A stretch of DNA of 64,000 bases from Escherichia coli (GTDB lineage: Bacteria > Pseudomonadota > Gammaproteobacteria > Enterobacterales > Enterobacteriaceae), in NCBI RefSeq assembly GCF_003334405.1, contig NZ_QOWM01000013.1; one strand, written 5' to 3'. The position numbers were made by a program, and so were the translations under genes. This document shows positions 18,611-20,658 of this stretch, one piece after another. Under the pieces are notes generated by a model. The model was not told the DNA's origin and did not search any database. It saw only the letters and a list, made by a program, of their open reading frames with translations. Positions within the stretch are counted from its first letter, which is position 1. Each line of letters begins with the position of its first letter.

Positions 18611-19609
18611 TCATAACGCCTGGATTTTGGCCCACACGCTGTCATCAACAGTGATGCCGTTACGGCGGTTTTCGGCCAGCAGGGTAGTAAATTCATGGCC
18701 GGGTAAGCGAATGGCCTGATTTTCGTCAGCACGCTCGGCACTAGTAACGTAATCCATGATGCGTTGCAGCTTGGCATCGCGGGTGGGACCGTCGATAAGC
18801 TTGTCCACTTCAATGGCAATAAAAATTTGTGAAATGCCGTATTCGTCGCTGTTGTCCTGGGTGACTTCGGCAACGGATGCGCCGTCGGAAAGGAGAGTAG
18901 CGATCATATCCAGCACAATCGACATGCCAGAACCTTTCCAGTAGCCCATCGGCAAAATGCGGCGATTCTTCTCGATAACGCCAGGTTCTTTGGTCAAATT
19001 GCCCTCATCATCAAAGCCACCATCGACCGGGAGCTGACGACCTGCCAGACGGTTAACTTCTAACATGCCGTAAGAGAACATCGACATCGACATATCGACC
19101 ATGGTGATCGGCGTGGAAGGAATGGCGACGATCAGCGGGTTAGTGCCGATGCGACACTCTTTTGCGCCCCACGGCGGCATTACGGCGATGGAGTTGGTCC
19201 AGCAAATGCCAATATAGCCTTTTTCCGCCGCCTGCCAGCCGTAGCTGCCGCCGCGCATCCAGTGGTTGGCATTACGTAGTGCCACCAGACCAATACCGTG
19301 ATCGGCAGCCAGTTCAATGGCGCGATCCATCATCTTTTTCGCTGTCAGGTTACCGATCGAACGCTGGGCGTCCCACTGTTCAATTGCGCCGAGGCTGGTT
19401 ATACGTTTGGGTTGGGCATCAGGAATGATATCGCCGTTTTCCAGTTGTTGAATGAAACGAGGGAAACGATTAACGCCGTGAGAATAAACGCCGGATTCGG
19501 TGGTGCGGGCGAACATCTCTGCACAGGCGTCAGCCGTTTCGCTGTCAACGCCGCGTGAAATTAAGACCCGATTAAAGGCTGCTTTTAACTGCTCAAATGT
19601 CACTTTCAT
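18611..19609 (-). CDS. yiaK: 2,3-diketo-L-gulonate reductase
   Basis: 332-aa ORF recognised as YiaK; first gene of the yiaK-sgbE operon. Confidence 0.9.
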
Positions 19610-19809
19610 CCCAGGCTTCCTTGTTTTTTTGATCGCTTTTTTGGCTTAAAATTTCAATATGCGAAACTTGATTTCAAATATATCGATCACTTTTTAACAA
19701 AGCAATCTGATTGATGAATTTCAAAAGACATAAAAATCAATTGGTTATAAATTATCTGTCGAGATCGTGAACTACGGCACACTTTGCGCTACCATCAGGA
19801 CGCGACAAA
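19610..19809. promoter_or_regulatory. Divergent yiaK / yiaJ promoter-operator region
   Basis: AT-rich 200-bp intergenic region with three direct TTTCAA-containing repeats (19651, 19671, 19718); YiaJ is the recalled repressor of this operon. Confidence 0.5.
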
Positions 19810-20658
19810 ATGGGGAAAGAAGTGATGGGAAAAAAAGAGAACGAGATGGCGCAGGAAAAAGAGCGTCCAGCCGGAAGCCAGAGTCTGTTTCGCGGGTTGA
19901 TGCTGATTGAGATTTTGAGCAACTATCCAAACGGTTGTCCGTTGGCGCATCTTTCGGAGCTGGCTGGTTTAAATAAGAGTACCGTCCATCGCTTATTGCA
20001 GGGATTACAGTCCTGCGGCTATGTGACCACCGCGCCTGCCGCAGGGAGTTATCGCCTGACCACCAAATTTATTGCCGTCGGGCAGAAGGCGCTGTCTTCG
20101 CTGAATATCATTCATATCGCCGCTCCGCATCTTGAGGCACTGAACATCGCCACTGGTGAAACCATTAACTTCTCCAGCCGCGAAGACGATCACGCTATTT
20201 TGATTTATAAGCTGGAACCCACAACCGGGATGCTGCGAACCCGTGCCTATATTGGCCAGCATATGCCGCTCTACTGTTCCGCAATGGGCAAGATCTACAT
20301 GGCGTTTGGTCACCCGGACTACGTGAAGTCATACTGGGAAAGCCATCAGCATGAGATCCAGCCGTTAACCCGCAATACCATTACCGAGCTGCCCGCGATG
20401 TTCGACGAACTGGCGCACATTCGTGAAAGCGGAGCGGCGATGGACAGAGAAGAAAACGAACTCGGCGTCTCCTGTATTGCTGTTCCGGTGTTTGATATTC
20501 ATGGGCGGGTGCCGTACGCCGTGTCGATTTCGCTTTCGACATCACGTCTGAAACAGGTGGGAGAGAAAAATCTCCTGAAACCACTGCGTGAAACCGCGCA
20601 GGCTATTTCTAATGAACTGGGATTTACTGTCAGGGATGACCTGGGCGCGATCACATAA
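19810..20658 (+). CDS. yiaJ: IclR-family transcriptional repressor YiaJ
   Basis: 282-aa ORF with N-terminal HTH and C-terminal IclR effector domain. Confidence 0.9.
   Translation: MGKEVMGKKENEMAQEKERPAGSQSLFRGLMLIEILSNYPNGCPLAHLSELAGLNKSTVHRLLQGLQSCGYVTTAPAAGSYRLTTKFIAVGQKALSSLNIIHIAAPHLEALNIATGETINFSSREDDHAILIYKLEPTTGMLRTRAYIGQHMPLYCSAMGKIYMAFGHPDYVKSYWESHQHEIQPLTRNTITELPAMFDELAHIRESGAAMDREENELGVSCIAVPVFDIHGRVPYAVSISLSTSRLKQVGEKNLLKPLRETAQAISNELGFTVRDDLGAIT

Follow-up and report, generated by a model that had tools for sequence, protein, structure and literature searches.

Two of three ATTTCAA repeats between yiaK and yiaJ of Escherichia coli very probably belong to a three-box YiaJ/PlaR operator

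The spacer between the divergent genes yiaK and yiaJ of Escherichia coli carries three copies of a TTTCAA-containing word, and we consider it very likely that the repressor YiaJ (PlaR) has a three-box operator at 19651-19676 to which the first two copies contribute boxes 1 and 3, and that the third copy lies outside this unit. Our own analysis contributes sequence, fixed spacing, conservation and linkage to yiaJ; the work of others has established that YiaJ binds the spacer in vitro and in vivo and that it represses yiaK (Shimada 2019, PMC6958661; Gao 2018). The element is already known, being the known operator of a known repressor, and sites predicted earlier cover all three copies. What we offer is a way of reading it, to which the inverted middle box is the key: the direct repeat that catches the eye makes up half of a repressor site already known. 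The conserved boxes 1 to 3 can thereby be told apart from an E. coli-specific third copy, and no new kind of element is involved.

The window analyzed here, a stretch of 64,000 nucleotides (64 kb), is from E. coli, and the 601-bp stretch around the operator matches 4992 of 5426 complete E. coli genomes. The yiaK-yiaJ spacer (19610-19809) is 200 bp long with 34.5% G+C and is flanked by two genes:

18611-19609, minus strand: yiaK, an open reading frame with RefSeq annotation, matching NCBIfam NF009750 at 670 bits.
19810-20658, plus strand: yiaJ (plaR), an open reading frame with RefSeq annotation, Pfam HTH_IclR and IclR_C domains and PDB entry 1YSQ.

The product of yiaK is 3-dehydro-L-gulonate 2-dehydrogenase, and the gene heads the repressed operon. 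YiaJ/PlaR, encoded beside the operator, is an IclR-family repressor that RefSeq labels IclR family regulator YiaJ; its Pfam matches are HTH_IclR (2.5e-14) and IclR_C (2e-66), the structure of its effector domain is PDB 1YSQ, and a tetrameric relative, TtgV, is available on DNA (2XRO). The initial annotation had placed the repeats between yiaK and yiaJ and had called YiaJ an IclR-type protein, and both annotation and Pfam domains agree with it.

A good deal is known about this repressor at this locus. Targets of PlaR have been collected by genomic SELEX, in which one of the strongest peaks was that of the plaR-yiaK spacer, also the probe most strongly shifted in gels; 10 targets yielded a palindromic PlaR box of 21 bp, ATnTGAAACnnnGTTCAnTT, which is said to overlap the yiaK promoter; and yiaK is derepressed when plaR is deleted, with ascorbate and galacturonate releasing PlaR from DNA (Shimada 2019, Sci Rep 9:20415, PMC6958661). 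As printed, this consensus has 20 letters, a T having probably been dropped from GTTTCA. Two YiaJ ChIP-exo peaks fall in the yiaK-yiaJ spacer, one of them at the position of RNA polymerase (Gao 2018), and deletion of yiaJ alone strongly derepresses yiaK (Gao 2018; Shimada 2019, PMC6958661). The resolution of the published gel-shift and SELEX data falls short of single boxes, and the literature that we searched, which left out Ibanez 2000 and Campos 2008, yielded no base-resolution footprint of YiaJ on the spacer. For the IclR family at large, motifs have been divided into group 1 (e.g. WTTYCRYW3RYGRAAW) and group 2 (TGRAACAN1-2TGTTYCA), 32 orthologous groups have three-box sites that match both, and tandem IclR sites 19-21 bp apart fit tetramer binding (Suvorova and Gelfand 2021, Front Microbiol 12:675815, PMC8222616). 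As E. coli sites appear in the lists of both groups, we infer that the YiaJ group is one of these 32.

How unusual are the repeats themselves? The TTTCAA motifs first noticed at 19651, 19671 and 19718 are all exact matches on the plus strand, and each extends to the 7-mer ATTTCAA (19651-19657, 19671-19677 and 19718-19724), with start-to-start distances of 20, 47 and 67 bp; an 8-mer, AATTTCAA, is common to copies 1 and 3, and another, ATTTCAAA, to copies 2 and 3. A simple explanation would be that AT-rich intergenic DNA has produced all of these repeats, or at any rate the third, by chance and that they have no sequence-specific role. The 64-kb window as a whole is not enriched for ATTTCAA (16 matches against 14.6 expected), and when the 200-bp intergenic region was shuffled 5000 times with its dinucleotides preserved, a 7-mer of one kind or another was present three or more times in 11% of the shuffles and a 6-mer in 50%; three copies of ATTTCAA in particular came up in just 0.02%. 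The clustering of TTTCAA is real, yet only mildly unusual, and it is because of conservation, not because of counting statistics, that we assign a function to copies 1 and 2 and not to copy 3.

The operator that we favor is made of the following parts, the last three of which have no strand of their own:

19651-19656, plus strand: box 1, ATTTCA (copy 1), at about +14 to +19 of the yiaK transcript and in the same direction as box 3.
19662-19667, plus strand: box 2, CGAAAC (CGAAAT in most genera), the inverted half-site common to both overlapping palindromes, at about +3 to +8.
19671-19676, plus strand: box 3, ATTTCA (copy 2), the right arm of the PlaR box, adjoining the yiaK -10 hexamer, at about -2 to -7.
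19659-19679: the PlaR/YiaJ box ATGCGAAACTTGATTTCAAAT, 21 bp, a GAAA-N5-TTTC palindrome that contains boxes 2 and 3 and falls, as the KdgR box does, into IclR 'group 2'.
19650-19668: the palindrome of boxes 1 and 2, AATTTCAATATGCGAAACT, of IclR 'group 1' (WTTYCRYW3RYGRAAW), listed for b3575 at -60 with a score of 5.86.
19637-19661: a weak tandem group 2 site, TTTTTTGGCTTAAAATTTCAATATG, whose right half is box 1 and whose left half is degenerate, listed for b3574 at -172 with a score of 4.39, 20 bp from the main site.

Taken together, the boxes form an element ATTTCA-N5-CGAAAC-N3-ATTTCA at 19651-19676, in which the E. coli spacers are ATATG and TTG. Box 2 is the reverse complement of boxes 1 and 3 save for one base; boxes 2 and 3 make a GAAA-N5-TTTC palindrome centered at 19669, boxes 1 and 2 make a TTTC-N7-GAAA palindrome centered at 19659, and boxes 1 and 3 repeat each other directly at a distance of 20 bp, which places them on the same face of the DNA because 20 bp is about two helical turns. 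The repeats had been described as three direct repeats, and boxes 1 and 3 do point in the same direction; what that description overlooked is the inverted middle box, CGAAAC at 19662-19667, and that copy 3 is not part of the unit.

Both overlapping palindromes resemble published consensus sequences. The interval 19659-19679 (ATGCGAAACTTGATTTCAAAT) fits the 21-bp palindrome ATnTGAAACnnnGTT(T)CAnTT, and the core of this PlaR box, CGAAACTTGATTTCA, is one mismatch away from TGAAAYNNNRTTTCA, the sole such match in the 64-kb window; a search of the same 64 kb for further YiaJ sites gave none better than two mismatches, which is the chance level. Boxes 1 and 2 fit the group 1 consensus at 17 of 17 positions in their enterobacterial consensus form (ATTTCACTATGCGAAAT) and at 15 of 17 in E. 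coli (ATTTCAATATGCGAAAC). When CGAAAC-TTG-ATTTCA is set against the group 2 pattern TGRAAC...GTTYCA, the spacing is right and the GRAA/TTYCA cores match, but the inner and outer bases differ. The supplementary table of PMC8222616 gives four sites for b3574/b3575, namely ataTgcGAAActtgATTTCAaAtaT (score 5.23 / 5.90), which is boxes 2 and 3; TtTTTTGgctTaAaATTTCAatATg (4.39), which is box 1 with a degenerate left half, 20 bp from ataTgcGAAActtgATTTCAaAtaT; AgTTTCgcATATTGAAATT (5.86), which is boxes 1 and 2; and TtTTatgTcTtTTGAAATT (4.02), a weak group 1 site that corresponds to the third copy. The same table gives orthologous sites in Salmonella, Klebsiella, Citrobacter, Serratia and Pectobacterium (PMC8222616). 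We also considered, and rejected, an arrangement of two full palindromes with centers 19 to 21 bp apart, i.e. four half-sites: at 19642-19647, where the fourth half-site would be expected (20 bp left of box 2), the sequence is unconserved, with five of the six positions below 1 bit, and the tandem partners score only 4.39/4.40.

Conservation carries most of the argument for copies 1 and 2. A search with the YiaJ protein, restricted to one genome per species, gave 80 loci ranging from Escherichia to Serratia, Pectobacterium, Yersinia, Hafnia and Edwardsiella, and ATTTCA-N5-YGAAAY-N3-RTTTCA with at most one mismatch is present upstream of yiaJ in 78 of these 80 Enterobacterales species, a count to be read with the relatedness of the genomes in mind, as related genomes are not independent events. 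The two exceptions are a Klebsiella metagenome-assembled genome, in which a deletion takes out both the operator and the -10 hexamer, and Intestinirhabdus alba, which is without yiaK and without the operator. When the gap between boxes 1 and 2 was allowed to vary from 3 to 8 nt, it was 5 nt in 76 of 76 matches, and the 20-bp distance between copies 1 and 2, remarked on from the E. coli sequence, is confirmed and is kept at every locus that has the element. Box 1 reads ATTTCA at 74 of 78 loci and is followed by C in 57, A in 14 and T in 7 (ATTTCAC 53, ATTTCAA 14, ATTTCAT 7, ATTCCAC 4). The word to look for is thus ATTTCA and not the TTTCAA that was originally singled out, since box 1 reads ATTTCAC in 53 of 78 species. 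Box 2 is CGAAAT at 65 of the 78 loci and YGRAAY at nearly all, and box 3 is ATTTCAA at 73, with copy 2 conserved at 77. With copies 1 and 2 retained at 74 and 77 of the 78 loci, always at the same spacing, chance is ruled out for these two, and we judge it to be a very improbable account of the repeats.

The pattern of conservation within the spacer is equally informative. When 46 distinct intergenic regions of similar length are aligned, the majority-base frequency comes to 0.97-0.99 in the boxes (0.99 in boxes 1 and 3), compared with 0.52 at 19706-19717 and 0.69 in the ribosome-proximal leader. The boxes are rich in information and the N3 spacer is poor in it, a profile such as would be expected for a protein-binding site. 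Additionally, about 20 species have, in place of yiaK, a divergent gene for a sugar ABC-transporter ATPase of about 510 residues (best NCBIfam matches YtfR, RbsA and XylG, all under their cut-offs), and these loci keep the same three-box element amid flanks that are otherwise unalignable. The operator persists before a different gene and therefore goes with yiaJ, not with the yiaK leader.

Might the paralogue KdgR bind this site as well, or instead? The layout GAAA-N5-TTTC recurs in the KdgR box, RWWGAAACGNCGTTTCAKKA, KdgR is the NCBIfam model that YiaJ matches best (under that model's cut-off), and the likeness of the PlaR and KdgR boxes has been pointed out, with common targets proposed (Shimada 2019, PMC6958661). 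Against these similarities stand the association of the element with yiaJ in 78 of 80 genomes, the strong derepression of yiaK on deletion of yiaJ alone and the inner bases, which are GAAAT/ATTTC here and GAAAC/GTTTC for KdgR. We think a role for KdgR at this operator very unlikely.

The operator sits on the yiaK promoter, whose hexamers we placed by hand. We take the 5' end of yiaK to be 60 bp upstream of the ATG, i.e. at 19669, which is 8 nt beyond a TATATT hexamer:

19677-19682, minus strand: probable yiaK -10 hexamer TATATT, read from the sequence, with a majority-base frequency of 0.99 and a placement that leans on the assumed start at 19669.
19700-19705, minus strand: probable weak yiaK -35 hexamer TTGCTT (TTGATC in most genera), read from the sequence, with a 17-nt spacer and a conservation of 0.91.

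A consensus promoter scan of the region gave no sigma-70-like promoter above threshold, and it missed the yiaK promoter because the -35 hexamer TTGCTT matches at just three of six positions; so weak a -35 fits an activator-dependent (CRP-dependent) yiaK promoter. The PlaR box of the plaR-yiaK spacer overlaps TATATT by 3 bp and spans the presumed start at 19669. A YiaJ-binding fragment reportedly extends from -50 to +121, Crp site 1 is said to lie at -106, IHF reportedly modulates yiaK, and the yiaJ promoter is said to overlap that of yiaK.

Such close packing raises the question of whether the conserved words are simply promoter and leader elements of the divergent operon (an extended -10/discriminator and the initial transcribed sequence) whose likeness to one another is incidental. 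In favor of this, box 3 is immediately next to the conserved -10 hexamer, box 1 falls at about +14 to +19, and the promoter hexamers are conserved as strongly as the boxes. Yet three boxes have one word in common, in palindromic order and at fixed spacing; boxes 2 and 3 fit a consensus that comes from 10 unlinked PlaR targets; the element persists before a different first gene while the flanks of the element have diverged; and the leader RNA folds worse than its shuffles. We find this explanation improbable as a whole, while allowing that, with box 3 adjoining the -10 and box 1 in the transcribed leader, promoter or leader constraint could account for part of the conservation.

A related suggestion, that the element acts as RNA through a hairpin or a protein site that the box 1/box 2 inverted repeat forms in the yiaK 5' UTR, is in our estimate extremely unlikely. 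Boxes 1 and 2 are within the 60-nt leader, and a 5-bp stem with a 7-nt loop is possible in the centroid structure, but the minimum free energy of a 63-nt leader is -3.6 kcal/mol, weaker than that of its shuffles (z = +1.67; 195 of 200 fold at least as well), and a search of Rfam gave no match. Box 3 lies upstream of the start site, and the boxes are near-invariant, so that there are no compensatory changes to support pairing.

Turning to the rest of the spacer, we located the following features:

19735-19747, plus strand: IHF core match AATCAATTGGTTA (consensus WATCAANNNNTTR), one of four exact matches in the window and the sole one in the intergenic region.
19766-19781, plus strand: CRP site CGTGAACTACGGCACA, with two mismatches to TGTGAN6TCACA.
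19718-19724, plus strand: the third ATTTCAA (about -49 to -55 relative to the yiaK start), which is embedded in a conserved T-run/A-run, TTTTYAAAA, and has the -35 hexamer on one side and the IHF core on the other.

At the 60 yiaK-linked loci, the IHF core is present at the same place as an exact match in 43 and with at most one mismatch in 52, and the CRP site is kept with at most two mismatches in 57 (conservation 0.93). The center of the CRP match is at about -104.5 relative to 19669, near the -106 mentioned above and not identical to it, and a second CRP-like match (at most two mismatches) is found at 19598-19613. The initial annotation had also entertained the idea that the repeats are IHF- or CRP-associated elements. 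We dropped both identities: none of the three TTTCAA copies matches WATCAANNNNTTR, and no match to TGTGA-N6-TCACA with two or fewer mismatches overlaps any copy. The consensus matches are elsewhere, and only copy 3 is near the IHF core.

What, then, is the third copy? As ATTTCAA, it is found at the equivalent of 19718 only in E. coli, where it is retained in five of five alleles aligned, and TTTCAA is present at that place in 20 of 78 loci. Other lineages have other words there, namely TTTTTAAAA in E. albertii, TTTTCAA in E. whittamii, TTTTTTAAAA in Citrobacter and Klebsiella and TTTTTGAAAT in Phytobacter and Raoultella; conservation extends to the succession of T-run and A-run (TTTT-Y-AAAA, 0.83) and not to the C of the third copy. 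At 47 and 67 bp from copies 2 and 1, the third copy is out of helical phase with them, and the IHF core is 11 to 17 bp downstream of it. Chance is a reasonable explanation for its exact wording, given its restriction to E. coli and its distance and phase, although the conserved TTTT-Y-AAAA, its presence in all five E. coli alleles and the published score of 4.02 speak for something more than chance.

One proposal with a distinct though minority claim on our belief is that the third copy belongs to the region bound by IHF, as an AT-rich arm, or to the yiaJ promoter, as a -35-like TTCAAA/AAGACA, and is not a YiaJ site. IHF sites commonly have an AT-rich tract on this side, and the footprint of IHF is about 35 bp. 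An exact and conserved IHF core at 19735-19747 and the conservation of the T-run/A-run, though not of the C, are in keeping with this proposal; for the yiaJ promoter in particular, the consensus scan gave no sigma-70-like promoter here, and the candidate yiaJ -10 (TATAAA/TAAATT) is unconserved outside Escherichia. The AT tract around the third copy may serve IHF, the yiaJ promoter or weak binding of YiaJ. Most likely, the third copy is outside the conserved unit, a lineage-specific occurrence in the AT-rich tract that separates the IHF core from the -35 hexamer.

The suggestion that the repeats are operator half-sites accordingly holds for copies 1 and 2, which are conserved at fixed spacing, and does not extend to the unconserved copy 3. 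Published data could also have placed the operator elsewhere, with the repeats unconserved in other enterobacteria; we find that copies 1 and 2 are both conserved and that the PlaR box covers copy 2, and that copy 3 is the one for which conservation and placement both fall away.

How might YiaJ act at the three-box operator? The yiaK promoter would be occupied from about -12 to +20 (possibly +33) by YiaJ, either as a tetramer (a dimer of dimers) or as two dimers that cooperate, and YiaJ so bound would cover the -10 hexamer and the start and thereby keep RNA polymerase off, a steric repression that would end when L-ascorbate or galacturonate releases YiaJ. The primary dimer site would be boxes 2 and 3, because they match the consensus obtained from unlinked targets. 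Two turns further along the same face, box 1 would probably hold the second dimer of the tetramer through one specific half-site, by analogy with the third box of PcaU. An alternative pairing would be boxes 1 and 2 together with box 3 and a degenerate GCGATC at its right. From the sequence we infer that box 1 is probably contacted, and sequence is likewise what guides our suggestions on stoichiometry and on the pairing used; the stoichiometry in particular is a tentative suggestion, given that the fourth box of the two-palindrome tetramer model is unconserved. Since the PlaR box from 10 targets does not contain it, box 1 may be a peculiarity of this operator, or it may not be contacted at all. 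Box 1 is in this sense a concrete prediction, and the operator is a convenient E. coli case for the study of IclR tetramers on three-box sites.

A variant of this mechanism, to which we would give a small but not negligible chance, is that YiaJ binds in either of two registers, boxes 1 and 2 (group 1) or boxes 2 and 3 (group 2), with boxes 1 and 3 anchoring the tetramer and the third copy serving as a weak auxiliary site for yiaJ autoregulation. If it were true, the E. coli operator would be a practical test of the 'alternative dimerization' of IclR proteins, which has so far been proposed from sequence alone.

Where does the three-box operator stand among characterized and predicted systems? 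The PlaR box of Shimada 2019 is at the same locus and belongs to the same protein; it fits 19659-19679, includes copy 2, and goes with a repression that ascorbate or galacturonate relieves, but it consists of two half-sites in 21 bp and leaves box 1 (copy 1) outside. The three-box operators of Suvorova and Gelfand resemble the present one in the alternating direction of their boxes, in having one pair of group 1 and the other of group 2 and in their 20-bp tandem; they differ in being computational predictions, in an article whose main text does not name YiaJ. To these predictions our comparison of 80 genomes adds that the fourth box is unconserved, that the third TTTCAA is specific to Escherichia and that the operator also precedes an ABC-transporter operon. 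The KdgR box of gamma-proteobacteria is, as far as it is described where it is cited, another AT-rich GAAA-N5-TTTC palindrome, and KdgR is the closest characterized paralogue (Rodionov 2004, cited in PMC8222616 and PMC6958661); its inner bases and flanks differ, and the present element is linked to yiaJ and not to kdgR. Finally, the PcaU/PobR operators of Acinetobacter baylyi are, in the account given by PMC8222616, bound by regulators of the IclR family and combine a palindrome with an extra half-site in direct repeat (Popp 2002, cited in PMC8222616). According to the same account, their half-site word is of the GTTCGA type and of group 1 only, and PcaU is both an activator and a repressor; the parallel with box 1 is that PcaU needs its third box for binding (Popp 2002, cited in PMC8222616).

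The operator recognized by YiaJ (PlaR) is not tied to a single target gene. In about 20 species, the gene divergent from yiaJ is not yiaK; its place is taken by a gene for a sugar ABC-transporter ATPase of ~510 residues, whose top NCBIfam matches are YtfR, RbsA and XylG, all of them under the cut-off (yiaJ loci L024, L026, L029, L038, L045, L047, L050, L067-L072, L074, L075 and L077-L080). The same three-box operator is also found at these ATPase loci, and therefore the first gene of the regulon varies by lineage.

The intergenic region around the operator also varies. For example, in an uncultured Klebsiella genome (L027, 1270-1430), a natural deletion takes the entire three-box operator together with the -10 hexamer and leaves the -35-like, IHF and CRP blocks in place, such that the intergenic region measures 152 bp versus ~217 bp in related genomes. 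In Pluralibacter and Phytobacter massiliensis (L048 and L049), the yiaJ intergenic regions are longer, and each has, ~130-140 bp upstream of its main three-box operator, a second element of similar layout (e.g. GTTTCGCATAGTGAAATTGAATTTCA; L048 2688-2713; L049 2704-2729). Additionally, a derivative of E. coli K-12 MG1655 (L081, NZ_CP025268.1) carries galK inside the yiaJ-yiaK intergenic region, at a point equivalent to window position ~19709, with the -35 hexamer of yiaK on one side and TTTCAA copy 3 on the other; this insertion looks engineered.

Several further elements surround the operator:

19598-19613, second CRP-like match, TGTCACTTTCATCCCA, 2 mismatches, overlapping the yiaK start codon
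19631-19641 and 19685-19695, 11-nt direct repeat, GATCGCTTTTT and GATCACTTTTT, 54 bp apart, one copy on either side of the operator
19782-19799, block CTTTGCGCTACCATCAGG, directly downstream of the CRP site, near-invariant between genera

In most genera, the outer portions of the flanking repeats form an inverted pair, TGATCGC...GCGATCA. The GCGATC on the right is a candidate for a degenerate fourth box, the extra half-site expected if a YiaJ tetramer binds two palindromes. Three GATC (Dam) sites fall within 200 bp, one of which touches the CRP site (19763-19766).

Toward yiaJ, the CTTTGCGCTACCATCAGG block has a majority-base frequency of 0.95 in the cross-genus comparison and is retained in Intestinirhabdus (L055), a locus without the three-box operator; possible roles for the block are as promoter or leader of yiaJ or as a binding site for another factor. 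The yiaJ gene itself may start at the second ATG, at 19825 (MGKKENEM...), because annotated codons 1-5 are unconserved, with matches from other genera starting at residues 2 to 9 (19810-19830), and because a conserved GGAG (19812-19815) lies ~9 nt ahead of that ATG. At the yiaK end, the abstract of Ibanez 2000 reportedly mentions a second Crp site, which might correspond to the CRP-like match over the yiaK start codon.
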